A stretch of DNA of 64,000 nt from Myxococcales bacterium (GCA_020201435.1 JAIVGS010000002.1:8529-72528); one strand, 5' to 3'; shown: positions 549-56,564, numbered from the stretch's first letter. Made by a program: numbers and translations. The notes: a model not told the origin generated them from the letters alone.

Positions 549-558
549 AGTTGCAGTT

Positions 559-1767: not shown

Positions 1768-1771
1768 GGAA

Positions 1772-3046
1772 TTACCTCCGTCCCAGCGCGCGCAACAGCT
1801 GCGCCCGCGCCTTGGACAGCGTGTCATCGGCCTGCACCAGCTGCGCCGCGGCCTGCGTCACCGCGACCTGCGCGTCGCCCAGCTCGATCGCGCTGCCGAC
1901 GCCGACCTGGTAGCGCTGCTCGGCGAGCGTCAGGCGCACCTTGGCGTTGGTCAGCGCTTCCTGCGCGGCCGAGATCGACTCCTTCGCCCCCCGCACCGCG
2001 AGCCGCGCGCTGTCGACGTCGCTGCGCAGCGTCTGCTTGAGGAGGTCGAGCTGGGCGACCTCGCTGCCGACGTTGGCTTCGGCCTCGGCCACCTGCGCGC
2101 GCGTGGAGCCGCCCTGGAAGATCTGCCAGGTGGCGACGACTCCGACGGTCGCGTTCCAGCCGAGGTCGGAGAGGCTGGTGCCGCTCTGGGCGACGCCCGC
2201 GCTGCCGCTGATCGAGGGCCAGTACTGCCCCTGCAGCGATCGGACGGTCAGCTCGTCGGCGTGGACCAGCGCCTCGATCGAGGCGAACTCCGGGCGGTCC
2301 TTGACGGCCTCGTCGTAGAGCGGCTGGGTGTCGGCGTCCTCGTTCTGGACCGCGGGCATGGCTTCGTCGGCGACGTCGTAGTCGGTGGTGCCGAGGATCC
2401 CCATCGCCGAGTTGAGCGTGACCTTCGCGGTCTCGTACGTATTCTGCGAGTTGATCAACGCGACCCGCGCGTTGGCGGTGTCGGTGCGGGCCTGGGCGAG
2501 GTCGATCTCCGGGTGGGTGCCGGCCTTGACGAAGCCTTCGGTCTGCTGGAGGTGCTTCTGCTGGTTGGCGAGCGTGTCGGCAGCGACCTGGACCAGCGCC
2601 TTGTCGGCCCGCGCGTCGAAGTAGGCGGAGCGGACGGTGAAGTCGACCGAAAGCTCGGTGGCGCGCTCGGTCGCGGCCTGCGCGTCGGCCTGGGCCTTCG
2701 CCGCTTCCCAGCGGTTCGGCGTCGAGAAGAAGTCGAACAGAAGCAGCGAGGCGGTGAGGCTGTCGGACCAGGTGTTGCCGCTCGCGACGCCGGTCGGACA
2801 CGGGGCGGTCGGGTCGGTGGAGCAGGAGGCGCTGCGGACCGTCACCGTGCCGGCGCTGTGCTGGAAGCCGGCGCGCGCGGAGACCTGCGGGAGCATCGGC
2901 GCGAACGCCTGCTGCGCGCGGGCGGCGGCTGCCTGGGAGCCGGCGCGGGCCTGGCGGAGCTGCGGCTGGTTGGCGCGAGCGCTGTCGACGGCCTGCTGCA
3001 GCGTGACGACGCGCGCCGCGGCCAGCACCGCCAGGAGCAAATTCAC
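1772..3046 (-). CDS. TolC-family outer membrane efflux protein
   Basis: ORF 1772..3046 (424 aa). It begins with a signal-like N-terminus, LTLQQAVDSARANQPQLRQA, followed by the two repeated alpha-helical/beta halves typical of OMF proteins. It is the first structural gene of the efflux operon. Confidence 0.85.
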   Translation of the reverse strand: MNLLLAVLAAARVVTLQQAVDSARANQPQLRQARAGSQAAAARAQQAFAPMLPQVSARAGFQHSAGTVTVRSASCSTDPTAPCPTGVASGNTWSDSLTASLLLFDFFSTPNRWEAAKAQADAQAATERATELSVDFTVRSAYFDARADKALVQVAADTLANQQKHLQQTEGFVKAGTHPEIDLAQARTDTANARVALINSQNTYETAKVTLNSAMGILGTTDYDVADEAMPAVQNEDADTQPLYDEAVKDRPEFASIEALVHADELTVRSLQGQYWPSISGSAGVAQSGTSLSDLGWNATVGVVATWQIFQGGSTRAQVAEAEANVGSEVAQLDLLKQTLRSDVDSARLAVRGAKESISAAQEALTNAKVRLTLAEQRYQVGVGSAIELGDAQVAVTQAAAQLVQADDTLSKARAQLLRALGRR

Positions 3047-3510
3047 GCGTCACCTCCGGCGGCTGCGGGGCCCTCGTCCGGCGCGAACTCCGCGAGATTG
3101 CGCACCACCTTACGCAACGCGGCGCGGAACATTTCCTGTTCGCGGGCCGACATCCCTTGCACGACGGCGGACCGGACGCCAGTGGCGATGGGGGCGATCC
3201 GTTGGGCGAGCCGCACTCCGGCGGCGGTCAGCGTCACGCGGACGACGCGGCGATCGCGCGGGTCCGGTTCGACCCTCAGCAGGCCGCGCCCGGCGAGGCT
3301 CTCGGCGATGCGCGAGGCGGTCGGAGGATCCATGTGCTGGCGGCGCGCGATCTCGCCGAGTGACGCGCCGGGGAGCTCGCGATTCGCGTTGAGGAACCAG
3401 AATTGCGGCAGAGTGAGGTGGCGGGGGCGGACGGCGCGCTGGACCGCCTGCTTGATGCTGCGGCGGGCGGCGCCGATGAGGAGGCCGACGTATTCTTGTT
3501 CCTGCAACAT
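3043..3510 (-). CDS. MarR family transcriptional regulator
   Basis: This is the C-terminal 155 aa of ORF 3043..3717, starting at MLQEQEYVGLLIGAARR... The winged-helix core reads LTLPQFWFLNANRELPGASLGEIARRQHMDPPTASRIAESLAGRGLLRVEPDPRDRRVVRVTLT. It has a GTGA overlap with the OMP start. The upstream part of the ORF translates a tandem repeat and was rejected. Confidence 0.85.
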   Translation of the reverse strand: MLQEQEYVGLLIGAARRSIKQAVQRAVRPRHLTLPQFWFLNANRELPGASLGEIARRQHMDPPTASRIAESLAGRGLLRVEPDPRDRRVVRVTLTAAGVRLAQRIAPIATGVRSAVVQGMSAREQEMFRAALRKVVRNLAEFAPDEGPAAAGGDA

Positions 3511-20092: not shown

Positions 20093-20118
20093 CTGATTTG
20101 GTCAAATGACCAAATCAG
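20093..20118. repeat. 26-bp palindrome CTGATTTGGTCAAATGACCAAATCAG containing an exact family copy (20098-20113)
   Basis: Read directly. It starts 2 nt after the truB stop and contains the ligD stop codon (20115-20117) in its right arm. Confidence 0.9.
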
Positions 20119-21974
20119 AGGCCGGCGACCGCCGCGAGCGCCTGGGCCGTCAGCCGCTGGTGACTCTTCCAGTATTCCTTCCACGGGTCGGCGCGCAGCC
20201 GCGGCACCGTCTGTACGGTGAATTTCAGCGGATCGAGACGCGCCGACAGCTCGTCCCACGCGATCGGGACCGAAACCGGCGCGCCCGGCCGCGCCCGCGG
20301 CGAGTACGCCGCGATCGAGGTGTTGGTCCGGTTGTTGCGCAGGTAATCGATCAGGATCTTCTTCTCCCGCCCGGCCTTCGCGTACTCCGTGGTGTACGAC
20401 GCGCGATGCTGTCGCTCGACGGCCCGCGCCAGGTCGCGCGAAAAAGCGAGACAGTCGGTCCAGTCGCGCTCCGGAGCGAGCGGCACCACCACGTGCAACC
20501 CGCGGCCGCCGGTGGTCTTGACGAAGCTCTCGAGACCGAGGGCCCGCAGCGCCGACCGCAAGAGCCGCGCGCCCCCGACCACCTGGCGCCATCGCACCTC
20601 CGGACCCGGATCGAGATCGATCACGATTCGATCCGGCAGCTCGACCGCCTCGTCGCGCGTGTTCCAGGTATGGAACTCGATCACGTCCATCTGCACCAGC
20701 GCGAGCACCGCCTCGGGAGTATCGGCGATCAGGTACTCGCCGAGCTTCTTCTTCTCCTGAATCCGCACTCGCCGCAGGGCATCGGGGGCCCAAACCTTGG
20801 AGTGCTTCATGAACGTGCAGTCGTCGCCGATCGCGCCGGGGCAGCGCAGGAGCGTGAGCGGCCGCCCGCGCAGGTGCGGCAGCTCACGCTCGGCGACGCG
20901 GTCGTGATAGCGAGCCAGGTCGAGCTTGGAGAGGGCCTCCGCGGGAAAGACGACGCGCTCCGGATGGCTGAGCGAAATCCCGCGAACGGCGGGCCGCTCG
21001 CGGCCGACCTCGCGCGGCGCCTTGTCCTCGCGCAGTCCCTGAAAGGACGGATGGCGCAGGTTTCCGCCTTCGGTCCACTCGGTGAACATGACCTCCGCGA
21101 TCAACGCCGGTTTCACCCAGCGCGCGTTCCGCCCGAGCCAGCCCGGCGGCCGCTCGTCGAACGGGCACTCGCGCGTGCGCAGCGGCTCGAAGCGCGCGCG
21201 CAGCGACCGCGCCGCGGAGCGCGTGTAGCCGGTGCCGACCTTGCCCGCGAATCGAAGCTTGCCCGCCTCGTTCACGCCGACGAGCAGCGCCCCGATCGCC
21301 TTGCCGGGCTCGCGGGACGATTCGGTGAAACCGCCGACGACGAACTCCTGCCGGCGGACGCACTTCGTCTTGACCCACGCCGTGCTACGCCCCTCGTGGC
21401 GGGGAGAATCGAGCCGCTTGGAGACGATCCCTTCGAAACCGAGCCGGCAGGCCTCGCGAAGGACCGACGCGCCGCCGCCGAGCCAGTGCTGCGCGAGACG
21501 GACCATGCCGGTCCGCGGAACGGCTGCCGCGAGCGCGCGCGTGCGATCGCGCAGCGGCATGCGTGACAGATCGCGGCCGTCGAGCTCGAGCGCGTCGAAG
21601 ACGAAATAGACCAGCTCGCCGCGCCGGTCCCCGGCGATCCAGTTCTGCAGCGCCTGAAAGCTGGTGCGCCCATCGGCGAGGAGGACCGCGATCTCGCCGT
21701 CGAGGAGGGCGCTGGACACGGGAAGGCTGCGAGCGGCCGCCGCGACTTCGGGAAAATCACGCGTCCAGTCGTTCCCCTTGCGGCTCAGGAGCCGTACGCC
21801 GGCGCGCGCGACGCGGCATCCGATCCGGTACCCGTCGTACTTGATCTCGTGCAGCCAATCGTCGCCATCGGGAGGCGCCGGGACGAGCGTCGCGAGCTGC
21901 GGCCGGTACACGCTCACGTCGTTAGAGAGCCGGTGATGCTCGGTCGACGCCATTGCGGCAACATCGTCGTCCAA
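20115..21974 (-). CDS. ligD: Bifunctional LigD-type ATP-dependent DNA ligase + primase-polymerase (no phosphoesterase domain seen)
   Basis: ORF 20115..21974 (619 aa). The ligase motif is EIKYDGYR, with EGIVSKR. The C-terminal Pol domain has KTTGGRGLHVVVPL and LIDYLRNNRTNTSIAAYSPR. ATG 21953 is an alternative start. Confidence 0.85.
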   Translation of the reverse strand: MDDDVAAMASTEHHRLSNDVSVYRPQLATLVPAPPDGDDWLHEIKYDGYRIGCRVARAGVRLLSRKGNDWTRDFPEVAAAARSLPVSSALLDGEIAVLLADGRTSFQALQNWIAGDRRGELVYFVFDALELDGRDLSRMPLRDRTRALAAAVPRTGMVRLAQHWLGGGASVLREACRLGFEGIVSKRLDSPRHEGRSTAWVKTKCVRRQEFVVGGFTESSREPGKAIGALLVGVNEAGKLRFAGKVGTGYTRSAARSLRARFEPLRTRECPFDERPPGWLGRNARWVKPALIAEVMFTEWTEGGNLRHPSFQGLREDKAPREVGRERPAVRGISLSHPERVVFPAEALSKLDLARYHDRVAERELPHLRGRPLTLLRCPGAIGDDCTFMKHSKVWAPDALRRVRIQEKKKLGEYLIADTPEAVLALVQMDVIEFHTWNTRDEAVELPDRIVIDLDPGPEVRWRQVVGGARLLRSALRALGLESFVKTTGGRGLHVVVPLAPERDWTDCLAFSRDLARAVERQHRASYTTEYAKAGREKKILIDYLRNNRTNTSIAAYSPRARPGAPVSVPIAWDELSARLDPLKFTVQTVPRLRADPWKEYWKSHQRLTAQALAAVAGL

Positions 21975-21989
21975 CGCGTCAGCTCACCC

Positions 21990-37514: not shown

Positions 37515-38579
37515 ATGTTGAAGCCGCCGATCGCGCCGATGCTGGCCAAGCTCTCGACTGCGCTGCCCGAGGGGGACGGGTGGCTGTACGAGCCGAAATG
37601 GGACGGTTTTCGCGCGCTGGTCTTCCGCGACGGTTCGGACGTCTACCTGCAGAGCCGCGATCTGAAGCCGTTGAACCGGTATTTTCCCGAGCTGCTCGGA
37701 CCGCTGGGTGCGCAGCTGCCGGCGGGGTGCGTGCTGGATGGGGAGATCGTGATCGCCGACCCGTCGGGGCATCTCGACTTCGACGCGCTGCTGCTGCGGA
37801 TCCATCCGGCCGAATCGCGGATCAAGCTGCTCGCTTCGCAGACGCCGGCGTCGTACGTCGCGTTCGATCTCCTCGCGCGAGACGGCGAGGATCTGACCGG
37901 AACGGCGCAGGCGAAGCGGCGCGAGCTGCTGGAGAAGATCCTCTCACGGGCGACGCCCCCGCTGTACCTGACGCCGGCGACGCGCAACCGTTCGGTTGCG
38001 GGAGACTGGTTCTCCCGCTTCGAGGGTGCGGGCCTCGACGGTGTGGTCGCCAAGCGGCTGGAAGAGGCGTACCAGCCTGACAAGCGCGTCATGCTCAAGG
38101 TGAAGCACGCCCGCACCGCGGACTGCGTGGTCGCCGGTTTTCGCTGGCACAAGAACGGGCCGGGAACGATGGTCGGATCTCTCCTGCTCGGGCTCTACGA
38201 CGACTCCGGGACGCTGCACCACGTCGGCGTGACGTCCTCGTTCACCACCGCGGCGCGCAAGCAGCTCGTCGCGGAGCTCGAGCCGCTCCGCGCCGGCGCC
38301 GCGGAGAACCATCCCTGGCGCGATTGGGCTTCGTGGGCCGGCGAGCAGCGGATGCCGGGCGCGACTTCGCGCTGGAATCGCGGCAAAGACCTCTCGTGGG
38401 AACCGCTGCGCATCGAGCGGGTGTGCGAGGTTGCCTACGACCATCTGCAGGGCGACCGGTTCCGCCACGCGACCACCTTCAAGCGCTGGCGTCCGGACAA
38501 GCCGCCGTCCGAGTGCCGCTACGATCAACTCGAGGAGACGCCCGCTGCGGAGCTGAAGCAGATCTTCGGCGCGCGTTGA
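37515..38579 (+). CDS. ligC: ATP-dependent DNA ligase (LigC-like, ligase domain only)
   Basis: ORF 37515..38579 (354 aa). Motif I is YEPKWDGFR. Further motifs are LDGEIV, DGVVAKR and MLKVKH. Confidence 0.85.
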   Translation: MLKPPIAPMLAKLSTALPEGDGWLYEPKWDGFRALVFRDGSDVYLQSRDLKPLNRYFPELLGPLGAQLPAGCVLDGEIVIADPSGHLDFDALLLRIHPAESRIKLLASQTPASYVAFDLLARDGEDLTGTAQAKRRELLEKILSRATPPLYLTPATRNRSVAGDWFSRFEGAGLDGVVAKRLEEAYQPDKRVMLKVKHARTADCVVAGFRWHKNGPGTMVGSLLLGLYDDSGTLHHVGVTSSFTTAARKQLVAELEPLRAGAAENHPWRDWASWAGEQRMPGATSRWNRGKDLSWEPLRIERVCEVAYDHLQGDRFRHATTFKRWRPDKPPSECRYDQLEETPAAELKQIFGAR

Positions 38580-38619
38580 CGCTTGCCTGCGGCGACTTGT
38601 CCATTTTCACGGGCTCCGT

Positions 38620-39636
38620 ATGCTGAAAAGCGTGCCGGCGCGCAAGGAGCTGCTCCAGGTCGAAGGCCGCGAGGTCGCGATCTCGAATCCCGACAAGGTC
38701 TTTTTCCCGCAGCGCGCGATCACCAAGCTCGACCTGGTCAAGTACTACCTCGCGGTCGCCGCGGGCGCGCTGCGCGGAGCGGGCGGCCGGCCGATGGCGC
38801 TCAAGCGCTACGTCAACGGCGCCGAGGGAGCATTCTTCTTCCAGAAGCGCGCGCCGGAAGCGCGGCCGCTGTGGATCGAGGTCGTGGAGCTGAAGTTTCC
38901 CTCCGGGCGCACCGCGCGGGAGATCGTGCTGCGCGATGCGGCGCAGCTGGCATGGATCGTCAACCTCGGCTGCATCGATCTGCATCCGCACCCGGTGCGC
39001 GCGGAGGATCTCGATCATCCCGACGAGCTGCGCGTCGATCTCGATCCGGTCCCGAACGTGCCCTTCTCGCAGGTCCGCGAGGTCGCGCTGCTGGCGCGCG
39101 AGGTGCTGCGCGAGCACCGCCTGGAAGGATTTCCCAAGACCTCGGGTTCGCGCGGGATTCACGTCAACGTGCGGATTCAACCGCGCTGGACCTTCCAAGA
39201 CGTGCGCGCGGCTGCGCTCGCGCTCGCGCGCGAAGTGGAGCGCCGCGCGCCATCGCTGGCGACGTCGAAGTGGTGGAAGGAAGAGCGGCATGGCGTGTTC
39301 ATCGACTACAACCAGAACGCGAAGGATCGGACGGTCGCGTCCGCGTATTCGGTGCGGCCCACGCCCGACGCGCGAGTCTCGACGCCCCTCGGCTGGGACG
39401 AAGTTCCGAACGTCGACCCTGCGGAGTTCACGCTCGAGACGGTGCCACGGCGCTTCGCGGCGCTCGGCGATCCGCACGCGAAGATCGAGGAGGAGAAGGG
39501 CTCGCTCGAATCGCTGCTCGAGCTGTCGGCGCGGCAGAAATCGGAAGGGCAGGGCGATGCGCCGTGGCCGCCGCATTACGCCAAGCAGGACGACGAACCG
39601 CCGCGCGTGCAGCCCTCGAAGCGCCGCAAGCGCTAG
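38620..39636 (+). CDS. LigD-polymerase-domain-like primase-polymerase (Prim-Pol)
   Basis: ORF 38620..39636 (338 aa). Motifs are ISNPDKVFFP, DLDP, KTSGSRGIHVNVRI and FIDYNQNAKDRTVASAYSVRP. Confidence 0.85.
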   Translation: MLKSVPARKELLQVEGREVAISNPDKVFFPQRAITKLDLVKYYLAVAAGALRGAGGRPMALKRYVNGAEGAFFFQKRAPEARPLWIEVVELKFPSGRTAREIVLRDAAQLAWIVNLGCIDLHPHPVRAEDLDHPDELRVDLDPVPNVPFSQVREVALLAREVLREHRLEGFPKTSGSRGIHVNVRIQPRWTFQDVRAAALALAREVERRAPSLATSKWWKEERHGVFIDYNQNAKDRTVASAYSVRPTPDARVSTPLGWDEVPNVDPAEFTLETVPRRFAALGDPHAKIEEEKGSLESLLELSARQKSEGQGDAPWPPHYAKQDDEPPRVQPSKRRKR

Positions 39637-40013: not shown

Positions 40014-40157
40014 CCGGGGCAGAACGCGCGATGTCGTTCCGCGATCTATCGATCGTAGATCCCGCCGCAAGTGAAAAGCCAACGAGTACGGCAGGATAGG
40101 CACGGCACGCGGCGTGAATTGGCGGACTTCAACCCTTTTCGGAGCCGGAGCCCGCCG

Positions 40158-42410
40158 ATGAACCGCATTGCGACATTGCTCTTCCTTTTCGCCGCCCCTT
40201 CGTTCGCGCAAGCCCAGGGTGCGCTGTTCGAACGCGCGCAAACCGGGCCGAGCCCGAATCTGCGCGCGGTCGCCGAGCGCGTGCGGGTGACGATCGATCA
40301 CCAGTATGCGGAGACCGTGCTCGAGCAGGAATTCGAAAACACGTCGGGCGCGCGACTCGAGGGTCGCTACCTCCTGCGCACCGCGGGCGCGACCGTCGAA
40401 GGATTCGCCTACTGGAACGGCGAGCAGAAGATCGTCGGCGAGGTCTTCGAGAAGCAGCAGGCGCGCAACCTCTACGAGAACGTCGTCGGCCGCAGGCGCG
40501 ACCCGGGGTTGCTCGAGCAGATCGGCGAAGGAAGCTTCGCGTTCAACGTCTTTCCGATCGAGCCGCGCGAGAGGAAGCGCGTCGAGGTCCGCTTCGGCCA
40601 GCGGCTCGCGCGCGAAGGCCGAACGATGCAGTACCGGCTGACGCTCGGTGGCGGCGAGAGCGACGTCGTCGCCGAGATCTCCGATCCGCATCCGATCCTG
40701 CGCATCGATTCGCAGAGTCATCGGCTCGACACCGAACGACTCGACGCGCGGCACGCGCGGGTGCGCGCCTTCGCCGGGCCATCGGGGACGCGAGACCTGA
40801 TCATCGACGTCGAGGTCAACGCCGATCCGTGGCAGCCGACCGCCGTCGTGCATCGCGATCCGGGCCAGGACCCCTACCTGGTGCTGCAGATGGCCGCGCC
40901 GGCGACGGTCGCGGCGAGCGAAGTCAGCCGCAAGGACGTGACCGTGGTGATCGATCGATCGGGCAGCATGACCGGCCCGCCGATGGACCAGGCCTGCGCT
41001 GCCGGCGAGCTGGTCGTGCGCCGGTTGCGGCGGGGCGATCGCGTCAACGTGATCGCCTTCGATCACACCGTCGATCCGCTGTTCACGAAGCCGCAGCCGG
41101 TCGAGACCGCGCGCGATGCGGCGCTGCAGTTCATCCATCGCATCCGCGCGGGCGGCGGCACCAACATCGCCGCGGCGCTCGACGCCGCGCTCCGCGCGCA
41201 GCACGGCGGGACCGAGCCTCACATCGTCCTCTTCCTCACCGACGGCCAGTCGGACAGTGAATCGGCGCTGCGGGTCGCTCACGACGATCGCGGCGACACG
41301 CGCGTGTTCACCTTCGGCCTCGGGAGCGAGGTGGAGAAGGCGCTTCTCTCGCGGCTCGCTTCGACCAAACGCGGGCGCTTCACGTACGTCGAGAGTCCGG
41401 AGGTCATCGAGCAGCGGGTGGGCCGCCTCTTCGACCAGATCGAGTCGCCCGCGCTGGTCGGGCTCTCGCTGGAGGCGCGGGGCGCGACGCTGCTGCGCAC
41501 GTATCCCCGGACGCTGCCGGATCTCTCGGCGGGCGACGACCTGCTCGTCGCGTCGCGGGTGATGGGCGCCCCGGGGTCGCAGCTCGAGCTGGTCGTGCAC
41601 GGCACGCTCGGCGGGCGGCAGGTTTCGTATCCGGTCAGCGTCACGCTGCCGGAGCGCGCCTCGCACCCGTGGGCGGGGCGGCTGTGGGCGAAGTCGCGCA
41701 TCGACGACGTGCTGGAGGAGATGGCGTTGACCCGCGATCCGCCCAACGAGCTGAAGGACGAGGTCATCGAGCTCGGGCTGGCGTACGACCTGGTGACCCC
41801 GTACACGTCGTTCCTCGCCGTGCCCGAGAGCGAGCTCGCCGGCGAGCAGGCGCTGACACTGGCGCAGATGCGCGAGCAGCGGGCGAAGGTCGTCGCGGCG
41901 AACGCCGACGCGGCGGCGCTGTCGCGCAAGAACATGCCGCCCGGCGATCCGCTGCTGACGGTGAACGCGCCGCGGGATGCCCTGCAGGTCACCGCATATT
42001 TCCCGTTCGGGCTGGTGCGCGACCTGAAATGGGACGATCACCTCGAGAAATGGACGCTGCGTTTCCTGGTGCCAGTCGGTGTCGCCGACGGCGATTACGA
42101 GGCGATGGTGGTCATCGTGCGCCGCGATCACACCATCGAGCTGGCGAAAGCGGCGTACACGATCGACAGCAAGGAGCCGGAGTTCGAGGTCGATGCCGCG
42201 CAGGCGATCTCCGGCGTGCACGTACGCGTAATCGCCGCCGAGCCGGCGCGGCGTGTGACCGTGGCTCTCGCCCGCGATCCGCGGCAGCGCATCGAGCTCG
42301 CCGGCGACGGCCGCGTGTTCGAAGGCGATCTTCCCGTGCGCGGCACGCTGCGGGTCGTGGTCGCGGACATGGCGCGGAACGAGACCTCGCGCGAGGTCGA
42401 GCCGCGATGA
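40158..42410 (+). CDS. Secreted VIT (vault/inter-alpha-trypsin) + von Willebrand factor A domain protein
   Basis: ORF 40071..42410, from M30. It has a signal peptide (MNRIATLLFLFAAPSFAQA), a VIT-like N-terminus and a VWA MIDAS motif (VVIDRSGSM...TNIAAAL...LFLTDGQSD). Confidence 0.8.
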   Translation: MNRIATLLFLFAAPSFAQAQGALFERAQTGPSPNLRAVAERVRVTIDHQYAETVLEQEFENTSGARLEGRYLLRTAGATVEGFAYWNGEQKIVGEVFEKQQARNLYENVVGRRRDPGLLEQIGEGSFAFNVFPIEPRERKRVEVRFGQRLAREGRTMQYRLTLGGGESDVVAEISDPHPILRIDSQSHRLDTERLDARHARVRAFAGPSGTRDLIIDVEVNADPWQPTAVVHRDPGQDPYLVLQMAAPATVAASEVSRKDVTVVIDRSGSMTGPPMDQACAAGELVVRRLRRGDRVNVIAFDHTVDPLFTKPQPVETARDAALQFIHRIRAGGGTNIAAALDAALRAQHGGTEPHIVLFLTDGQSDSESALRVAHDDRGDTRVFTFGLGSEVEKALLSRLASTKRGRFTYVESPEVIEQRVGRLFDQIESPALVGLSLEARGATLLRTYPRTLPDLSAGDDLLVASRVMGAPGSQLELVVHGTLGGRQVSYPVSVTLPERASHPWAGRLWAKSRIDDVLEEMALTRDPPNELKDEVIELGLAYDLVTPYTSFLAVPESELAGEQALTLAQMREQRAKVVAANADAAALSRKNMPPGDPLLTVNAPRDALQVTAYFPFGLVRDLKWDDHLEKWTLRFLVPVGVADGDYEAMVVIVRRDHTIELAKAAYTIDSKEPEFEVDAAQAISGVHVRVIAAEPARRVTVALARDPRQRIELAGDGRVFEGDLPVRGTLRVVVADMARNETSREVEPR

Positions 42411-43584: not shown

Positions 43585-43588
<4 letters not shown>
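42407..43588 (+). CDS. beta-propeller-like repeat protein (two-component-regulator-propeller-like)
   Basis: This is the C-terminal 393 aa of ORF 41669..43588, with an ATGA overlap onto the VWA gene. It carries repeated G.LW(V/A)(G/A)T / GL..... motifs. It contains two copies of the TTGGTCA palindrome. Confidence 0.6.
42577..42611. repeat. TTGGTCA-NN-TGACCAA family, long (35-nt) form: TTGGTCAAATGACCAAAACGGTCAAATCGCTCATG
   Basis: Read directly, inside the propeller gene. It encodes IWSNDQNGQIAHA. Confidence 0.9.
42781..42802. repeat. TTGGTCA-NN-TGACCAA family copy (CATTTGGTCAAACGACCAAATG; core 42784-42799, 1 mismatch)
   Basis: Read directly, inside the propeller gene. It encodes GIWSNDQM. Confidence 0.8.
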
Positions 43589-46764
<3,176 letters not shown>

Positions 46765-49703: not shown

Positions 49704-50324
49704 CTAGTGCGCTTCTGCGGATGGCGGCGCTCCCTGCCCCTGTTGCGCCATCTGCGCCGCGAATTCCTCCCCGGCCTTGCGCTGCTGCTCGAACGTCATG
49801 TCCTTCTTGTGGGTCGCGACCATCCACACCTGGCCGTACGGGTCGGCGATCGCGCCCATCCGGTCACCCCAGAACATGTCGGCGAGCGGCATCGCCGCGC
49901 GGCCGCCCGCCTGGACGGCGGCGTTGAAGACCACGTCGCAGTCCGGGACGTAGAGCATGAAGCTCGACGTCGGCTTGTGGTTGGGGCCGGCGGCGGTGAC
50001 GAAGCCGGGGCCGCCCTGCATCTCGTCGTTGATCGCGACGATGGTGTCGCCGATCTTCAGCTCCGCGTGCCAGATGCTCTTCCCATCCGGCGCCGGATGC
50101 CGCGCGCGCTCCTCGGCGCCGAGCGCCTTCTTGTAGAACTCGATGGCGGAGGCCGCGTCGCGGACGGTGAGCTGGGTGATGACGTCCTGCGCGCCCGGGT
50201 TCTTGTACTTTGGCGCGGCAGACTTGCGCGGCGCGGACGCCTTGCGCGCGGGGCCGGCCTTGCGGGCAGGCTTGCGCGCCGCCTTCGTCGCGGCCGGCTT
50301 CTTCGCTTTCCTTGCTTTTGCCAT
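49704..50324 (-). CDS. VOC (glyoxalase/PhnB-like) family protein with a Lys/Ala/Pro-rich histone-H1-like N-terminal tail
   Basis: ORF 49704..50474, from M51. The tail is MAKARKAKKPAATKAARKPARKAGPARKASAPRKSAAPK. The VOC domain follows (LTVRDAASAIEFYKKALGAEE...HAELKIGDTIVAINDE...DMFWGDRMGAIADPYGQVWMVATH). Confidence 0.75.
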   Translation of the reverse strand: MAKARKAKKPAATKAARKPARKAGPARKASAPRKSAAPKYKNPGAQDVITQLTVRDAASAIEFYKKALGAEERARHPAPDGKSIWHAELKIGDTIVAINDEMQGGPGFVTAAGPNHKPTSSFMLYVPDCDVVFNAAVQAGGRAAMPLADMFWGDRMGAIADPYGQVWMVATHKKDMTFEQQRKAGEEFAAQMAQQGQGAPPSAEAH

Positions 50325-50376
50325 GTGTGGTTTCCCTCCAAAGAGCGGCGTATTCGGGCATGAGCGGGCCTCGTGG

Positions 50377-51297
50377 TCAAGGACGTCCGTGTGCGGCATC
50401 CTGCGTCCATTGCGCGACGATCTGGTCGAGCCCCTGGCGATAGCTGGGATACCGAGGCATCCACCTGAAATCACGTTTGAATTTGGCTGCGGTGGTGACC
50501 ATCGGCGTGCACAGGAAGTCGACGCTCATCCGCCCCGCGGCGAGCCGCGCGCTCCATTTCCGGACCGAGCGCGGAGCGGGCGCGCCGATGCGATCGGCGA
50601 GCGCGCGGAAGAAATCGGCCGACGTGGCGGGCTCGTCGTCGACGACGTGCCAGAGGCCGGGACCGGCGCGCTCGGCAGCGATCGCGAACGCGGCCGCGGC
50701 GTCGTCGAGGTGCAGGAAGGAGAGCCGGGCGGCGCCGCGGATCGCCGCAACCCGTCCGCGCCGCAACGACTCCGCCAAGGCGCGCGTCCCGGCGTCGGCG
50801 CCGTAAAACCATCCGCAGCGCAGCGTGCTGTAGCCGGCGTCGGCGATCATCCGCTCGCCGTCGAGCGCCGATCGCGCGACCGGGTCAGGTCCTGGCGCGG
50901 AAGTCTCGTCGAACGGCGCTCCGTCGGCCGGCCTCGCCGCCCAGACGATGCTCTGGAACACGACCCGCCGCGCGCCGACCGCGCGGGCGCAGTCGAGCAA
51001 GGCGCGCGTTCCCTCCCGGCGGATCCGATCATTGGCGGCGAAGTCGGCGAGCGAGACACGCTTCTTCTGCGGGATCGAGGTCGCGGCGTGGATCAGCACC
51101 TCGCATCCGTCGGCGGCGCGGGCGAGCGACTCCCCGTCGAAGAGATCGGCCGCTACCGGCGTGCCGCCCGCCCGCCGCACGCGCTCTTCCCCGCCGGCGC
51201 TGCGGGCGAGCCCCCGCACGTCGTGCCCGCGGCCGGCCAGAAGCCCGATCAGCCGGCGACCCAGCACACCGCTTGCTCCTGCGACGAAGACGTTCAT
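50377..51297 (-). CDS. NAD-dependent epimerase/dehydratase family (SDR) protein
   Basis: This is the C-terminal 306 aa of ORF 50377..52278. It begins MNVFVAGASGVLGRRL (Rossmann GxxGxxG). Confidence 0.8.
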   Translation of the reverse strand: MNVFVAGASGVLGRRLIGLLAGRGHDVRGLARSAGGEERVRRAGGTPVAADLFDGESLARAADGCEVLIHAATSIPQKKRVSLADFAANDRIRREGTRALLDCARAVGARRVVFQSIVWAARPADGAPFDETSAPGPDPVARSALDGERMIADAGYSTLRCGWFYGADAGTRALAESLRRGRVAAIRGAARLSFLHLDDAAAAFAIAAERAGPGLWHVVDDEPATSADFFRALADRIGAPAPRSVRKWSARLAAGRMSVDFLCTPMVTTAAKFKRDFRWMPRYPSYRQGLDQIVAQWTQDAAHGRP

Positions 51298-51336
51298 GGC
51301 ACGCAAATTTACCGATTCGTGTCCACATTGTGAGCC

Positions 51337-52995
51337 GTGCGCTATCTCGCCCTTGCGACGGATTACGATGGGACGCTCGCATTCCAGGGCACCGTCCGCG
51401 AGCAGACCTTCAACAGTCTCGTGCGGCTGCGCAAGAGCGGCCGCCGCACCATCCTGGTGACCGGACGCGAGCTCGACGACCTGCAACGCGTGTGCCCGCG
51501 GCTCGACCTGTTCGACCGCGTCGTCGCGGAGAACGGCGCGCTCCTCTACCGGCCGGAGACGCGCGAGGAGATCGTGCTCGCCGAGCCGCCGCCGCCCGAG
51601 CTCGCCGAACGGCTGCGCGCGCGCAAAGTTCCGATCTCGACCGGCAAGGTGATCGTCGCGATGCGAGAGCCGCACCAGCTCGAAGCCGTGGAGGTGATCC
51701 GCGAGCTCGGCCTCGAGCTGCAGGTGATCTTCAACAAGGGGGCGGTGATGCTCCTGCCCTCGGGGATCAACAAGCAGACCGGACTCGCCGGTGCGCTGCG
51801 AGAGCTCGGGCTCTCGGAGCGGAACACGGTCGCGGTCGGCGACGCGGAGAACGACCACGCGATGCTCGCGGCCAGCGAGTGCGGCGTCGCCGTCGCCAAC
51901 GCCCTCGACGCGCTCAAGGAGCGCGCCGACTTCGTCACCCGCGGGGCGCGCGGCGAAGGAGTCGAGGAGTTGATCGATCGGATGGTCAACGACGATCTGC
52001 GATCGGTGGTGGTCGCGCGCCATGCGCTCCTGCTCGGCATGCGGCGCGACGGCACCGAGGTCCGCATTGCGCCCGCCGGCCGCCGCGTGCTGGTCGCCGG
52101 TCCGTCGGGAAGCGGAAAGACCACCGCCGCCACCGGCTTCCTCGAACGGATCATGGGCGCCGGCTACCAGGTCTGCATCATCGATCCCGAGGGCGACTAC
52201 GAGGAGTTCGACGGCCTGGTCGGAATCGGCACCAGCGAGCGCGCGCCGTCGGTCGAGGAGGTCCTCGAGCTGCTGCAAAAGCCCGAAGTCAACGTCGCCG
52301 TCAACATGCTCGGGGTCTCAGTGGAGGAGCGGCCCGCTTTCTTCGCCGGCCTCCTGCCGCGGCTTCAGGAGATGCGCGCCAGATACGGGCGTCCGCACTG
52401 GATCGTGATCGACGAGGCCCATCATCTCCTCCCCGCCTCGTGGAAGCCGGCGCCGTTGACGGTCCCGCGCGAGCTCGGCGGCGTGATGCTGGTGACGGTG
52501 CATCCGGAGAACGTCTCGCCGGCGATGATGGAAGCGATCGACACCGTCCTCGCCGTCGGGGAGGCGCCGGAACGGACGCTCCGGCGATTCGGCGATGCTC
52601 CGCCCGTCGAGATGGAAGAGGGCGAAGTGCTCGCCTGGTCGAACGGCCAGATCGAGCCGTTGCGACTGGTGCCGGGCAAGGCGCAGCACATGCGCCACCG
52701 CCGCAAGTACGCCGCCGGCGACGTCCACGAGAAGGCATTCGTGTTCCGCGGCCCGGCCGGCAAGCTGAGCCTGCGGGCGCAGAACCTCTCGGTCTTCCTG
52801 CAGATGGCAGAGGGCGTGGACGAGGACACCTGGATGCACCACCTGCAGCAAAGCGACTATTCGCGCTGGTTCCGCGAGGCGATCAAGGACGAGGAGCTCG
52901 CCGAGGAAGCCGCCGAAATCGAGCGGCGTCATCCACCCCACAGCCGCGAGAAGATGCGCGAGGCGATCGAGAAGCGCTACACGCTGCCGGAGTGA
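51337..52995 (+). CDS. Fusion protein: HAD-IIB-type phosphatase domain + HerA/DUF87-like P-loop ATPase + conserved C-terminal domain
   Basis: ORF 51337..52995 (552 aa). HAD motifs are LATDYDGTL, the VTGR region and AVGDAENDHAML. ATPase motifs are Walker A VAGPSGSGKTT, CIIDPEGDYEEF and Walker B WIVIDEAHHLLP. The tail reads ...DEDTWMHHLQQSDYSRWFREAIKD. Confidence 0.75.
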   Translation: MRYLALATDYDGTLAFQGTVREQTFNSLVRLRKSGRRTILVTGRELDDLQRVCPRLDLFDRVVAENGALLYRPETREEIVLAEPPPPELAERLRARKVPISTGKVIVAMREPHQLEAVEVIRELGLELQVIFNKGAVMLLPSGINKQTGLAGALRELGLSERNTVAVGDAENDHAMLAASECGVAVANALDALKERADFVTRGARGEGVEELIDRMVNDDLRSVVVARHALLLGMRRDGTEVRIAPAGRRVLVAGPSGSGKTTAATGFLERIMGAGYQVCIIDPEGDYEEFDGLVGIGTSERAPSVEEVLELLQKPEVNVAVNMLGVSVEERPAFFAGLLPRLQEMRARYGRPHWIVIDEAHHLLPASWKPAPLTVPRELGGVMLVTVHPENVSPAMMEAIDTVLAVGEAPERTLRRFGDAPPVEMEEGEVLAWSNGQIEPLRLVPGKAQHMRHRRKYAAGDVHEKAFVFRGPAGKLSLRAQNLSVFLQMAEGVDEDTWMHHLQQSDYSRWFREAIKDEELAEEAAEIERRHPPHSREKMREAIEKRYTLPE

Positions 52996-53014
52996 GGTCC
53001 GAAGCCTGTAAGAT

Positions 53015-53857
53015 GTGACGATGGAATTCCGCAGGTTTCGCGGCACCGACCAGTATCTCACCTCGTCCGCGCTCGAGTCGGCGGTCAACTGCGCTCTCGC
53101 CCTCGAGCGCCCGCTGCTGGTGCGCGGCGAGCCCGGGACCGGCAAGACGCAGCTCGCGGAAGCGATCGCGTCCGGCCTCGGACTGCGCCTGATCCACTGG
53201 CCGGTGAAGTCGACGACCCGCGCCCAGGACGGCCTCTACGTCTACGACACCGTGCAGCGCCTCTACGACTCGCGATTCGGCGAGGGCGACGTGAAGGACA
53301 TCCGCCGCTACATCAAGTACGGCCCGCTCGGCAACGCGTTCGCGTCGCCGGATCGCTTGGTCCTGCTGATCGACGAGATCGACAAGGCCGATTTGGAATT
53401 TCCCAACGATCTGCTGCACGAGCTCGACCGGATGCGCTTCGTCGTCAACGAGACCGGCGACGAGATCGTCGCGCGGCACCGGCCGGTGGTGGTGATCACC
53501 TCGAACGCGGAGAAAGAGCTGCCCGACGCATTTTTGCGCCGCTGCGTCTTCCACTTCATCGAGTTTCCCGACAAGGAGCTGATGGCGCGCATCGTGCGCG
53601 TGCATCATCCCGATCTCGATCGCCAGCTCCTCGATCAGGCGTTGAAGGCGTTCTACGCGATCCGCGACACCGAAGGCCTGCGCAAGCGGCCCTCGACCAG
53701 CGAGCTGATCGACTGGATCGCCGTCCTCCGGCGGGCCGGAATCGCCAGCGTCGAGCTCGAGGCGGGGATGCCCTTCCTCGGCGCGCTCCTCAAGCGCGAG
53801 CAGGATCTGCTGGCATTCGCCGAAGCCGCCAACCGCGGCCACCGTCCGAGAGCGTGA
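53015..53857 (+). CDS. MoxR-like AAA+ ATPase (AAA_5 / CoxD-like)
   Basis: ORF 53015..53857 (280 aa). Motifs are Walker A GEPGTGKTQLA, Walker B LLIDEIDKAD, and ITSNAEKELPDAFLRRC. Confidence 0.85.
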   Translation: MTMEFRRFRGTDQYLTSSALESAVNCALALERPLLVRGEPGTGKTQLAEAIASGLGLRLIHWPVKSTTRAQDGLYVYDTVQRLYDSRFGEGDVKDIRRYIKYGPLGNAFASPDRLVLLIDEIDKADLEFPNDLLHELDRMRFVVNETGDEIVARHRPVVVITSNAEKELPDAFLRRCVFHFIEFPDKELMARIVRVHHPDLDRQLLDQALKAFYAIRDTEGLRKRPSTSELIDWIAVLRRAGIASVELEAGMPFLGALLKREQDLLAFAEAANRGHRPRA

Positions 53858-53861
53858 GCCG

Positions 53862-55043
53862 ATGTTCGTCGAGTTCCTCTACGAGCTGCGCGATCGGGGA
53901 GTCAAAGTCGGCCCCCAGGAGGCGATGTCGATCGCGCAGGCGCTGGAATTCGGCTTGCACAAAGGGACCCTCGACGGTTTCTACGAGACCGCGCGCGCCC
54001 TCTGCGTGCACCGCGAGCAGGATCTCGACGCGTTCGACCGGGCGTTCGCCCACCACTTTCGCGGCGTGCCCGACGAGGCGATCGCGCTGACCGAAGAGCT
54101 GATGGCATGGCTTCAGCAGCCGAAGTCTCGCCGGCAGTTGACCGAGCTCGAGCAGCAGCTTCTGCAACGGATGGATCTCGAGCAGGTCCGCCAGCAGATG
54201 CGCGAGCGGCTCGCGCAGCAGCGGCAGCGGCACGATCGCGGAAACCGCTGGATCGGCACCGGCGGCACGTCGCCGCACGGAAGCGGCGGGACGAATCCGG
54301 CCGGCATCAAGGTCGGCGACGCGCCCGGCGGCCGCGGCGCGATCGAGATCGCCGGCGAGCGCCATTTCAAGGACCTGCGCTCCGACGTCACCCTCGACAC
54401 CCGGCAGATCGAGGTCGCCCTCAGGCGGCTGCGCGCATTCGTCCGCGAGGGCGCGGAGGACGAGCTCGACATCGAAGGAACGATCGACAAGACCGCGCGC
54501 AACGCCGGCGAGCTGGAGCTCGAGCTGCGGCCGCAGCGGCGGTCGAATCTGCGCGTCCTGCTCCTCCTCGACGTCGGCGGATCGATGGACCCGCACGCCG
54601 AGGTCTGCGAACGGCTCTTCTCGGCGGCCAGGCGCGCGACCCATTTCAAGGAGCTGCGCACCTTGTATTTTCACAACTGCATCTACGGGCGCGTCTACGA
54701 GCGCGCTTCGCTGATGCACGGCATCGACGTGCTGCAGCTGTTGCAGGAGTGTGATCCGTCGTGGAGGCTGATCGTCGTCGGCGACGCGTTGATGAGCCCC
54801 TGGGAGCTGCAGTCAGCCGACCCGCGATGGAGCTGGAGCGACGATTCCGGCGCGCCGGGCATCGCCTGGCTGGCGCACCTCGGACAGCACTTTCCCCACT
54901 CGGCGTGGCTCAATCCCGAGCCGGAGGTCGCGTGGTACGGGACGGCCGAGGTCATCCGCCGCGTGTTTCCGATGTACCGCTTGACGCAGGACGGCCTCCT
55001 CGAAGCCGTCCACCACCTGATGCGCGGCGGAGCGCGGCGTTAG
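53862..55043 (+). CDS. VWA-domain protein, CoxE-like
   Basis: ORF 53862..55043 (393 aa). The N-terminus is MFVEFLYELRDRGVKVGPQE. The C-terminal VWA region has LLLLDVGGSM. It lies 5 nt after the MoxR gene. Confidence 0.8.
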   Translation: MFVEFLYELRDRGVKVGPQEAMSIAQALEFGLHKGTLDGFYETARALCVHREQDLDAFDRAFAHHFRGVPDEAIALTEELMAWLQQPKSRRQLTELEQQLLQRMDLEQVRQQMRERLAQQRQRHDRGNRWIGTGGTSPHGSGGTNPAGIKVGDAPGGRGAIEIAGERHFKDLRSDVTLDTRQIEVALRRLRAFVREGAEDELDIEGTIDKTARNAGELELELRPQRRSNLRVLLLLDVGGSMDPHAEVCERLFSAARRATHFKELRTLYFHNCIYGRVYERASLMHGIDVLQLLQECDPSWRLIVVGDALMSPWELQSADPRWSWSDDSGAPGIAWLAHLGQHFPHSAWLNPEPEVAWYGTAEVIRRVFPMYRLTQDGLLEAVHHLMRGGARR

Positions 55044-56455
55044 CTGTTCGCCCGCGCGAAGTGATCGGCGACCACGCTCGCCACGCACGCCGTCAGGCGC
55101 ACGCCGGTCGGGATATGCAGGAACTCGTTGGGGCCGTGCGCGTTGCTGCCCGGTCCCAGCACTCCGGTGATGAGGAACTGCGCCTCGGGAAATTGCTCGC
55201 CGAGCATGCCCATGAACGGGATCGTCCCGCCCTCGCCGAAGGCCATCGGCGGCTTGCCGAAACAGGCGAGCGACGCCCGCTCGACCGCCGACGAGAGCCA
55301 GGGGGCGAGCGGCGGCGCATCCCATCCGGTCGAGGACTTCTCCGCGTCGAACGTGACGCGCGCGCCGTACGGCGGATCTTCCTCGAACGTCTTCTTCACC
55401 AGCTTCGTCGCCTTCGCCGGATCGAGGCGGGGCGGAATCCGCAGCGAGATCTTGCAAGCAGTGTAGGGCCGGAGCACGTTGCCGGCGCTGCCCAACGGCG
55501 GCAGACCCTCGATGCCGGTGATCGAAAGGGCAGGGCGCCACGTCCGGTTGAGCACCAGCTCGAGCCGCTCGTGGGTCACCGGTTGCGCTCCGGGAGTGAA
55601 CGGGAACTTGTCGAACACCGCGTCGCCGAGCACTTCCGCGGTCGCGCGCGCCTGCTCGAGCCGCTCGCGCGGGACCTCGACCCGCAGCCCGGCGATCTTC
55701 ACCACGCCGGTGTTCTCGTCGTCGATGCGCGACAACAACCGGCGGAGGATCCGGAAGCTGGAAGGCACGATCCCGCTCGCGTCGCCGGAATGCACGCCTT
55801 CGGTTAGGATCTCGACGCGCAGGTTCCCAGCCACGATCCCGCGCAGCGACGTCGTCATCCACAGCTGGTCGTAATTTCCGCAACCGGAATCGAGACACAC
55901 GACCAGCGACGGCGAGCCGATCCGCGACGACAGGTGCTCGATGTACGCCGGCAGATCGGTCGATCCGCTCTCCTCGCAGGCCTCGATGAGGACGACGCAC
56001 CGCGCGTGGGGCGCCTTCTGCTCTTGCAGCAACCGCAGCGCCGCGAGCGAGGCAAACGACGAATACCCGTCGTCCGCGGCGCCGCGGCCGTAGAGCTTCT
56101 CTCCCTCCAGCACCGGCTCCCACGGCGACAATCCCTGCCGCCACCCGGTCATCTCCGGCTGTTTGTCGAGATGTCCGTAGAGCAGCACCGTCTCGCTCGA
56201 GTCGCCGGGCAGCTCCATGAAGATCACCGGCGTGCGCTTCTCGAGCCGCACCACCTCGACGCGCAGTCCCTGGAGCGGCTGCTTGCGGCACCACCGCTCG
56301 ATCAGCGCGACTGCGCGATCCATGTTCGCCTGCCAGTTCGGCTCGTACGCGGGCGACTTGTTGGGTATGCGGATGTACTCGCGCAAGGCGGGCAGGATCT
56401 CGCTTTCCCAGATCCGGCCCGATTCCTTCAGCGCCTGTTTGGGGTCGAAGCTCAT
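55040..56455 (-). CDS. M20 family metallopeptidase (dipeptidase)
   Basis: ORF 55040..56482. The start was chosen at ATG 56455 (56482 is the alternative). Motifs are LLYGHLDKQP, GRGAADDG, EACEESGS and PNEFLHI. Confidence 0.85.
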   Translation of the reverse strand: MSFDPKQALKESGRIWESEILPALREYIRIPNKSPAYEPNWQANMDRAVALIERWCRKQPLQGLRVEVVRLEKRTPVIFMELPGDSSETVLLYGHLDKQPEMTGWRQGLSPWEPVLEGEKLYGRGAADDGYSSFASLAALRLLQEQKAPHARCVVLIEACEESGSTDLPAYIEHLSSRIGSPSLVVCLDSGCGNYDQLWMTTSLRGIVAGNLRVEILTEGVHSGDASGIVPSSFRILRRLLSRIDDENTGVVKIAGLRVEVPRERLEQARATAEVLGDAVFDKFPFTPGAQPVTHERLELVLNRTWRPALSITGIEGLPPLGSAGNVLRPYTACKISLRIPPRLDPAKATKLVKKTFEEDPPYGARVTFDAEKSSTGWDAPPLAPWLSSAVERASLACFGKPPMAFGEGGTIPFMGMLGEQFPEAQFLITGVLGPGSNAHGPNEFLHIPTGVRLTACVASVVADHFARANS

Positions 56456-56564
56456 CGCCGGCGGTCTCCTATCACGACGCATCGACGCCGTCCCACGTCC
56501 GCGGGACCGAAAGTCTCGGTCCGGAAAGTCTGATCGAAAGCGCCGATCAAATAAGCTGCCGGGC

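Follow-up and report, generated by a model that had tools for sequence, protein, structure and literature searches.

A HAD-IIB phosphatase fused to an FtsK/HerA-like ATPase and an adjacent MoxR-VWA pair are probably two independent units in a Myxococcales genome

We combine homology searches, gene-neighbourhood comparison and structure prediction to study three adjacent genes in a 64,000-nucleotide stretch of DNA from a Myxococcales bacterium (GCA_020201435.1, JAIVGS010000002.1:8529-72528; "the window" below means this whole stretch). The first gene encodes a protein in which a HAD-IIB phosphatase is joined to a P-loop ATPase of the FtsK/HerA type (the fusion); the second and third encode a MoxR-type AAA+ ATPase and a CoxE-like VWA protein (the MoxR-VWA pair). 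An earlier reading of the window, made from the sequence alone (the sequence-only reading), proposed that the three genes act as one system. We find that the locus probably consists of two independent units, a solitary fusion gene and a MoxR-VWA pair, and not of a conserved triad. Taken together with the roles that we propose below for the two units, this is our best overall explanation of the locus, and we put its probability at roughly 0.7.

The evidence that carries this explanation is the distribution of the fusion and of its neighbours. When each GTDB species, represented by one genome, was scanned with two conserved peptides of the family, full-length relatives of the fusion appeared at no fewer than 573 species-level genome loci, of which the 80 best were kept. 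All 80 are essentially full length (query residues 1 to ~551), and outside the Myxococcales clade, which we define by a fusion at least 69% identical to that of the window, their identity is 50-58%. The hosts among these 80 include Myxococcales, Nostocales and other Cyanobacteria, Gemmatales, Isosphaerales, Pirellulales, Acidobacteriota, Chloroflexota, Nitrospirota, Gemmatimonadota, Nitrosomonas, Steroidobacter, Woeseiaceae, Acidimicrobiia and Clostridia. Tractable or culturable carriers hold the gene on secondary replicons: S. meliloti on pSymB (locus L089), A. tumefaciens on pAt (L093) and Synechococcus PCC 7502 on a plasmid (L094).

Linkage was then scored by tblastn with the MoxR and VWA proteins of the window (E <= 1e-5) within 6 kilobases (kb) of each fusion gene. 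Neither protein has a match near the fusion at any of the 76 non-myxobacterial loci; 2.5 kb or more of sequence is available downstream at 61 of them, and on each side at 48. Matches are present only in Myxococcales, at three of the four loci (L001, L002 and L004). Nor does another gene take the place of the pair. All-versus-all clustering of the neighbouring open reading frames (ORFs) gives a largest cluster of only 12 of the 80 loci, made up of generic histidine-kinase/response-regulator proteins, and in a Pfam scan of 119 immediate neighbours no family exceeds 4 members, the most frequent being a 3'-5' exonuclease of four syntenic Nostocales. The fusion gene is solitary and needs no conserved partner gene. 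The pair, for its part, also occurs without the fusion: the gene for a VWA homologue at 69% identity lies in a MoxR-VWA arrangement beside PEPCK and that for another at 66% identity in the order MoxR-ACBP-VWA, neither with a fusion gene nearby, while a third, at 61% identity, has no annotated AAA gene alongside. Neighbours of the MoxR-VWA pair vary by locus.

Even within the Myxococcales clade the arrangement is unstable. The three genes are adjacent in the window and at L002, L004 and L086, the last with a fusion 69% identical to that of the window and gaps of 38 and 7 nucleotides (nt). At L001 and L087, ~2.7 kb of inserted genes separate the fusion from MoxR; in L087 the inserts are two opposite-strand genes, one for a 297-amino-acid (aa) protein of no known kind and one for an MFS/PTR2 transporter. 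At L003 the MoxR-VWA pair is absent and a 642-aa unrelated opposite-strand gene fills the interval between the fusion and the M20 peptidase gene. Where the fusion homologue is 59-62% identical, its neighbouring genes are unrelated. This pattern is what would be expected of inherited gene order, not of a selected three-gene module, and the proposal of a single system falls with it, by a condition that the sequence-only reading had itself set: the linkage is confined to one clade, and there it is broken twice and lost once. A three-gene system would have meant a new machine linked to MoxR-VWA; what the comparison offers for it is clade-specific gene order only. For annotation more generally, the lesson is that tight gene spacing in a single genome is no evidence of a system.

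As a separate observation, the L001 insert (7831-10333) contains an ORF with a GNHVHLIVE motif which, by eye, is reminiscent of Y1 transposases of the IS200/RAYT type; if it is of this type, the break between fusion and MoxR in L001 would be an insertion event.

We turn to the locus itself. The ORF listing confirms three co-oriented genes where the sequence-only reading had placed them, between 51337 and 55043 (Table 1), with a third-position guanine-plus-cytosine (GC) content of 0.88-0.90, as in the window's other real genes (window GC ~70%). The same reading gave gaps of 20 and 5 nt; the spacing is indeed short, and only the exact values need correction. Reading the junctions, we find the fusion stop codon (TGA) at 52993-52995, the MoxR stop at 53855-53857 and the VWA start (ATG) at 53862, which leaves 4 nt between MoxR and VWA. 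MoxR has 280 aa if it starts at GTG 53015 and 278 aa if it starts at ATG 53021. The latter start is likelier because homologues begin MDFRRF or MEFRRF, and the gap between fusion and MoxR is therefore 25 nt. The stop codon of the VWA gene overlaps that of the M20 peptidase gene on the opposite strand, and this convergent gene closes the transcription unit. No terminator-like site was found between the three genes; in the interval 50300-55400 the lone terminator-like match is on the minus strand inside gene 1 (51792-51778), the count being below the shuffle expectation, and over the same interval an Rfam scan returned no family and a promoter scan no promoter-like site. Given the comparisons above, the fusion and the MoxR-VWA pair are probably co-transcribed here only through lineage-specific gene order.

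What remains after the triad is set aside is a well-defined fusion family with an invariant architecture, two intact active sites and only a generic database name. The fusion protein of the window is identical to NCBI MCA1825406.1, entered as 'HAD-IIB family hydrolase [Myxococcales bacterium]', and its translation contains each of the motifs that had been quoted from it (DYDGTL, GDAENDHA, GPSGSGKTT, IIDPEGDY and VIDEAHHL). The N-terminal part had been described as a complete HAD-IIB module, and both profiles and fold bear this out. The HAD matches span residues 1-220, with 94.6 bits for Pfam Hydrolase_3 and 83.1 bits for NCBIfam HAD-SF-IIB (TIGR01484) against a cutoff of 41.8. In an AlphaFold2 (AF2) model of the whole fusion (mean predicted local distance difference test, pLDDT, 84.8; predicted template-modelling score, pTM, 0.75), the domain superposes on the IIB structures 1wr8, 1rlm and 1ymq, and a mixed alpha/beta cap (residues ~77-133) lies between motifs II and III. 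The best match in the PDB by Foldseek is Pyrococcus PH1421 (1wr8), with 27% identity and a template-modelling score (TM) of 0.81 on the target, followed by E. coli YbiV/SupH/YidA, BT4131, trehalose-6-P phosphatases and the Synechocystis sucrose phosphatase.

The catalytic motifs of this domain read D9-x-D11-G-T13, T42, K134 and G168-D169-A-E-N-D173 in the window protein. Conservation of HAD motifs I-IV is at least 95% across 79 members of the family, and a check of the catalytic Asp residues, which the sequence-only reading had called for, found them intact in all 79 homologues. Assignment to a particular substrate fails at the level of NCBIfam equivalogs: the domain is below the cutoffs for phosphoglycolate, sucrose-P, sugar-P and mannosyl-3-phosphoglycerate phosphatases, the archaeal-type phosphoglycolate phosphatase models giving 100.2 bits against 122.75 (TIGR01487) and 95.1 against 198 (PRK01158). 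With known HAD-IIB phosphatases such as PH1421 (1wr8) and Thermoplasma TA0175 (1kyt), the N-terminal 220 residues share all four motifs and the C2B-type cap; those enzymes, however, are stand-alone proteins of ~230-290 aa, whereas here the phosphatase is covalently linked to a P-loop ATPase and one more conserved domain.

The ATPase domain had been described as a HerA/DUF87-type NTPase, which is right for the superfamily and the fold and not for HerA proper. Pfam matches the DUF87/HerA central domain at residues 248-321 with 28.0 bits (cutoff 23.2), and Walker A, DPEGDY and the Walker B DE..HH are at least 95% conserved in the 79 sequences; conserved arginines (R332, R347 and R352) are present as well. 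We modelled residues 225-552 separately with AF2 (pLDDT 77.6). The top 50 Foldseek matches of this model are all HerA, VirB4, B204, EssC or TcpA, with E from 5.6e-10 to 2.6e-6; they include SIR2-HerA (8wiv and 8woc; E 5.6e-10), VirB4 (4ag6), Sulfolobus HerA (4d2i), DUF4297-HerA and HerA-NurA, and the best-aligned structure is the compact STIV2 packaging ATPase B204 (TM 0.72 on target). Sequence likeness to PDB proteins is limited to the P-loop region. With the FtsK-HerA ATPases (HerA, VirB4, B204) the fusion shares the RecA-like ASCE core, Walker A, the DPxGxY strand and a DEAHH-type Walker B. It differs from them in that neither Pfam nor the AF2 model, which is a monomer model, has a HAS-barrel: only a short beta-hairpin (231-244) precedes the P-loop strand, and the N-terminus is occupied by an enzyme domain. 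Likewise, no HerA partner gene (NurA, SIR2, DUF4297 or similar) recurs among the 119 immediate neighbours or across the 80 loci. Judged by the predicted structure, 'HerA-like' is correct at the fold/superfamily level and the fusion is not a HerA helicase proper.

Two other assignments of the P-loop were considered. A kinase-phosphatase of the PNKP type was suggested by APS kinase, the best single-domain P-loop match (E 8e-6, residues 27-103), and was ruled out by the fold search, which leads to the FtsK-HerA ASCE group, and by the DEAHH Walker B. An nSTAND3 match reaches 18 bits against a cutoff of 27.2 and covers the P-loop only.

The sequence-only reading had also noticed a conserved-looking C-terminal domain, and the alignment supports it: the motifs RHxR.YAxG, FxFxG, NL and G.D..TW..HL are found in at least 95% of the 79 sequences. 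NCBIfam has no model for this domain. Its nearest Pfam relative is DUF5752, which the window fusion matches at profile positions 52-95 of 208 with 20.5 bits, under the gathering score of 23; 19 of 35 diverse family members match DUF5752 at E <= 0.01 (best E 5.2e-6). In sequence this looks like partial homology and not membership. A literature search on DUF5752 found nothing. The domain was not seen on its own: a hidden Markov model (HMM) run on six-frame ORFs of 94 loci and the window found fusion genes only, and tblastn against plasmids found fusion homologues only. Neither Pfam nor NCBIfam detects a DNA-binding domain in the fusion.

Over the whole protein, conservation reaches at least 95% at 103 of 552 positions in the 79 sequences, which come from many phyla. 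Conservation of the HAD motifs together with Walker A, DPEGDY and Walker B implies that both catalytic centres are under selection, and by its motifs the fusion carries intact phosphatase and ATPase sites. A HMMER search with residues 225-552, exhaustive over 1.84 billion representatives, gives 414 clusters at 50% identity with E <= 1e-30, and the complete proteins (~560-580 aa) among the 150 best matches listed are matched at ~228-568, leaving space for an N-terminal HAD domain. Six matches were inspected, and four of them, short ones that might have passed for stand-alone ATPases, are fragments that start inside or just after the HAD domain. A complete match of 855 aa (P0242) has the HAD domain and, by eye, a hemerythrin-like C-terminal extension, and a 578-aa match (P0243) with the same extension starts after the HAD domain. 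The architecture is essentially invariant, with the fusion itself as the conserved unit. In databases the family is numerous, but it is named only 'HAD-IIB family hydrolase', and the fusion matches no characterised housekeeping family, which the sequence-only reading had named as the other outcome that would refute it. In our literature search no paper described a fusion between a HAD phosphatase and an ATPase of the FtsK/HerA type; the one match was an unrelated article on baculovirus.

The extension of P0242 and P0243 resembles, again by eye, a hemerythrin/HHE cation-binding domain (repeated H..E, EEEHH, HHI.EEE). In Paraburkholderia (L091), a gene for a hemerythrin is also found close to the fusion.

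The second unit is of a more familiar kind. Its identification as MoxR plus a CoxE-like VWA protein holds, both genes scoring above the Pfam cutoffs: gene 2 matches AAA with 40.8 bits and AAA_5 with 37.6 (cutoff 22), and gene 3 matches VWA_CoxE (PF05762) with 40.0 (cutoff 26.4). The translated MoxR has Walker A GEPGTGKT and Walker B LLIDEIDK, and its only sequence matches in the PDB are midasin AAA modules. The VWA protein has a conserved N-terminal domain followed by a VWA domain at the C-terminus, with no effector domain beyond it. A 99% identical protein from a Myxococcales metagenome-assembled genome (MAG) is annotated 'VWA domain-containing protein [Myxococcales bacterium]'. The canonical metal site of VWA domains is DxSxS; here it reads D-V-G-G-S (DxGxS, residues 237-241) and is invariant in 12 aligned homologues at 60-88% identity. 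The best NCBIfam matches, MadB (108.9 bits against a cutoff of 475) and MadC (24.7 against 600), are far below threshold, and the meaning of these two names could not be traced in the searchable literature; a SAV_2336 N-terminal model gives 49 bits against 200.

CoxD has 295 aa and CoxE ~44 kDa, and coxDEF lie directly downstream of coxMSL (PMC3471820). CoxD belongs to the MoxR subfamily APE2220 (PMC3893208), and CoxD-CoxE pairs are described as widespread in bacteria and ancestral to the conflict-type vWA-MoxR systems (PMC7159879). The pair of the window has the same AAA+/VWA_CoxE order and similar sizes (280 and 393 aa), but differs from CoxD-CoxE in having DxGxS in place of DxSxS and in lacking coxMSL or coxF alongside. 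The absence of cox genes nearby had been remarked on before, and we agree: no Mo-hydroxylase or cox gene is present among the 20 ORFs scanned, a selection from the window's ORFs made up of ten neighbours and ten other large ones. By analogy, the best reading of the MoxR-VWA pair is an ordinary CoxD/CoxE-like chaperone or maturation pair of known kind.

We now consider what the two units may do. In the fusion, the HAD-IIB domain, a predicted active phosphomonoesterase, sits at the N-terminal position that the HAS-barrel has in true HerA, and the ATPase may oligomerise like its FtsK/HerA relatives. Binding or hydrolysis of ATP could then gate the fused phosphatase, be coupled to it, or deliver substrate to it. 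The phosphatase, in turn, may act on a small substrate of the sugar-phosphate type in stress-linked carbohydrate metabolism, either compatible-solute or alpha-glucan. The MoxR-VWA pair would act separately, as an ATP-driven remodeller or maturation factor for a client protein, by analogy with CoxDE, NorQD and RavA-ViaA. A sugar-phosphate or stress role is a tentative proposal, one that we hold to be possible and short of probable. It is our preferred functional guess because the standard way to make sugar-type compatible solutes has two steps, one by a glycosyltransferase (GT) and one by a HAD-IIB phosphatase.

The genes around the fusion provide a lead in this direction. A TreZ-like GH13 gene and a hydrolase of the GDE (glycogen-debranching) type lie ~0.4-6 kb upstream of the fusion at five planctomycete loci (L009, L027, L032, L038 and L043). 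GlgB is directly upstream in a Korobacteraceae locus (L023) and 2.4 kb downstream in the window. A GT4 gene, a GDE_N_bis/MGH1-like hydrolase gene and a trehalose-6-P-synthase-like gene are beside the fusion in a gammaproteobacterial MAG (L060) and on the Aminobacter plasmid pAA02, and in Caballeronia two tightly spaced, co-oriented GT4 genes are just upstream. GT4 and GDE genes are also 4 kb from the fusion at L073, a GDE-type hydrolase gene adjoins it at L030, and three GT4 genes follow the VWA gene at L086. On five annotated replicons, from proteobacteria and cyanobacteria, stress-type genes are found close to the fusion (universal stress protein, CBS, PRC-barrel, Mn catalase, hemerythrin, cytochrome bd, Dps, rubredoxin and cold-shock); on the three secondary replicons named above (L089, L093 and L094), the fusion adjoins cold-shock, universal-stress, CBS, Dps and rubredoxin genes. 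A literature search for a link of S. meliloti RpoE2 to a HAD hydrolase found none. Overall the carbohydrate/stress association is weak but cross-phylum, a lead and not a result. The placement by trehalose/glucan-type and stress genes is nonetheless a testable starting point, with culturable hosts in S. meliloti, Agrobacterium and the Nostocales, among others. The fusion family is a reasonable target for characterisation, and the locus as such is no surprise to a specialist.

Within the two annotated clusters with GT4, GDE and trehalose-6-P-synthase-like genes, a separate phosphatase gene is not evident. The fused HAD domain may supply the phosphatase step in clusters of this kind.

Several points weigh against our explanation. 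The association with carbohydrate genes covers ~15 of 86 loci, several of shared ancestry, and the substrate class is suggested by the HAD-IIB cap type and the similarity to PH1421 and by nothing else. FtsK/HerA-type ATPases normally move DNA or proteins, and we know of no precedent for one that gates a small-molecule phosphatase. The C-terminal likeness to DUF5752 is below the Pfam gathering score, and DUF5752 itself is a family without known function. Finally, the short gaps of the window, in which no terminator-like site was found, would suit a real operon, and co-transcription could reflect a lineage-specific functional link.

This last point leads to the alternative that the locus is a clade-specific three-component machine, in which MoxR-VWA is a dedicated remodeller or assembly factor of the fusion in these Myxococcales. 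Co-orientation, the lack of a terminator-like site between the genes and the spacing, which is still tight in L086 (38 and 7 nt, compared with 25 and 4 nt in the window), whose fusion is 69% identical, speak for it, and several metagenome contigs, one of only 4189 bp, appear from their matching lengths to encode both fusion and VWA proteins. The machine would, however, have to tolerate the ~2.7 kb inserts of L001 and L087, which in L087 are on the opposite strand, and the absence of the pair at L003; the fusion does without an adjacent MoxR-VWA in 76 other species loci, and the pair also occurs without the fusion. Inherited synteny fits this pattern better than selection for an operon, and we consider such a machine unlikely.

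The fold of the ATPase raises a different alternative. A translocase ring could feed DNA or RNA ends to a HAD domain that removes a 3'-phosphate or 3'-phosphoglycolate, in a layout like that of HerA-NurA or PNKP. In fold the ATPase comes nearest to DNA translocases and packaging ATPases, the HAD domain most resembles archaeal enzymes of the phosphoglycolate-phosphatase type (TIGR01487, 100 bits; 1wr8), and the C-terminal domain contains a basic conserved motif, RHxRKYAxG. A 3'-5' exonuclease gene adjoins the fusion at 4 Nostocales loci, and LigD genes occur in the wider neighbourhood of the window and L087. The exonuclease link and the LigD link are, however, each confined to a single lineage, the TIGR01487 score is below its cutoff, Pfam and NCBIfam detect no DNA-binding domain, and the P-loop fold is ASCE/FtsK-HerA and not that of the PNKP kinase. 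HAD enzymes that act on macromolecules usually have no cap, whereas the fusion has a C2B cap like those of small-molecule sugar phosphatases. We therefore regard end processing as improbable.

A more speculative variant, and to us a long shot, keeps the phosphatase and the motor in one action: an FtsK/HerA-type ring motor that threads a phosphorylated polymer to the tethered HAD phosphatase, an undescribed kind of enzyme, for which MoxR-VWA was possibly recruited as an assembly factor in myxobacteria. One candidate for the polymer is a phosphorylated alpha-glucan or glycogen chain, suggested because GlgB, TreZ and debranching-type neighbours recur; another is a blocked nucleic-acid end. If true, the fusion would be a bacterial ATP-driven machine for polymer dephosphorylation.

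Least credible of all is a defence or conflict system, with a HerA-type effector and a MoxR-vWA threshold switch like those of the ternary vWA-MoxR, SIR2-HerA and DUF4297-HerA systems. The ATPase fold is closest to HerA of anti-phage complexes (8wiv, 8woc and 8ziq), and MoxR-vWA pairs of the conflict type are described as descendants of CoxD-CoxE (PMC7159879); the ternary systems (Kaur et al. 2020, PMC7159879) likewise place MoxR and vWA beside a third, larger NTPase-containing gene. In our locus, however, that gene is HAD plus FtsK/HerA-like, neither VMAP nor inactive STAND (iSTAND). The three-gene arrangement is not a conserved one either, and the VWA protein lacks any equivalent of the variable C-terminal effector domains of the ternary systems' vWA. 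Against PADLOC-DB 2.0 there is a weak match to mad8 (41.8 bits over residues 232-367), the other matches cover P-loop segments only (HerA 15 bits, IetA 29 bits), and the VWA protein gives none. With 103 of its positions nearly invariant and a fixed architecture, the fusion is unlike fast-diversifying conflict proteins; its surroundings are variable, with carbohydrate and some stress genes and no defence genes noted, and a HAS-barrel and a nuclease or SIR2 partner are absent.

Table 1. Features of the locus and of the fusion protein, with carbohydrate gene clusters at other loci. Positions are those of the window unless another reference is named.
Feature	Position	Strand	Details
HAD-IIB/ATPase fusion (gene 1)	51337..52995	+	552 aa; Pfam, NCBIfam, AF2, Foldseek
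MoxR-type AAA+ ATPase, CoxD-like (gene 2)	53015..53857	+	Pfam AAA, AAA_5
CoxE-type VWA protein (gene 3)	53862..55043	+	393 aa; Pfam VWA_CoxE
NAD-dependent epimerase/NmrA-like gene, divergent	50377..51297	-	Pfam Epimerase 56.5 bits; context only
M20 peptidase gene, convergent	55040..56482	-	Pfam Peptidase_M20; context; synteny in L001-L004
HAD-IIB phosphatase with small C2B-type cap	fusion residues ~1-222		
Minimal FtsK/HerA-superfamily P-loop ATPase	fusion residues ~231-410		
ATPase motifs	fusion residues: Walker A G255-T263; DPEGDY 283-288; Walker B D359-E360; HH 362-363		
Conserved beta-hairpin and helical C-terminal domain, weakly DUF5752-like	fusion residues ~430-552		
GT4/GDE clusters	L060 2279-7215; L092 1-4555; L090 3569-5743; L073 12101-13704; L030 6-743		

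The surroundings of the three genes in the window are mixed. Upstream, the divergent epimerase gene starts ~39 nt from the fusion start, which leaves hardly any space for a divergent promoter region. A plus-strand ORF at 50143-51333, upstream of the fusion, was rejected as spurious: its translation is low-complexity and rich in Arg, Ala and Gly, and the real epimerase gene is opposite. Wider neighbours are a glyoxalase-fold gene, Lon protease, a giant Ser/Thr kinase-WD40 gene, the M20 peptidase, rhomboid, GlgB, a cNMP-binding protein and DUF2780. The ten other large ORFs scanned are a ClC channel, acyl-CoA synthetase, GGDEF, BlaR1-type M56, LigD, an aminotransferase, DAO, VIT-VWA, PrimPol and MFS.

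Two further large genes lie upstream of the Lon gene, one for a Ser/Thr protein kinase with a long WD40 array (1059 aa, 43585-46764, minus strand) and one for a VIT plus VWA protein (783 aa, 40059-42410, plus strand). The window also contains a gene for a LigD-type ATP-dependent ligase with PrimPol (20115-21983, minus strand) and a second, stand-alone PrimPol gene (38557-39636, plus strand), and at the related locus L087 a ligase and PrimPol pair is found past Lon (1303-3372). The ligase/PrimPol genes of the window and L087 are probably non-homologous end-joining genes in synteny with the Lon-fusion region.

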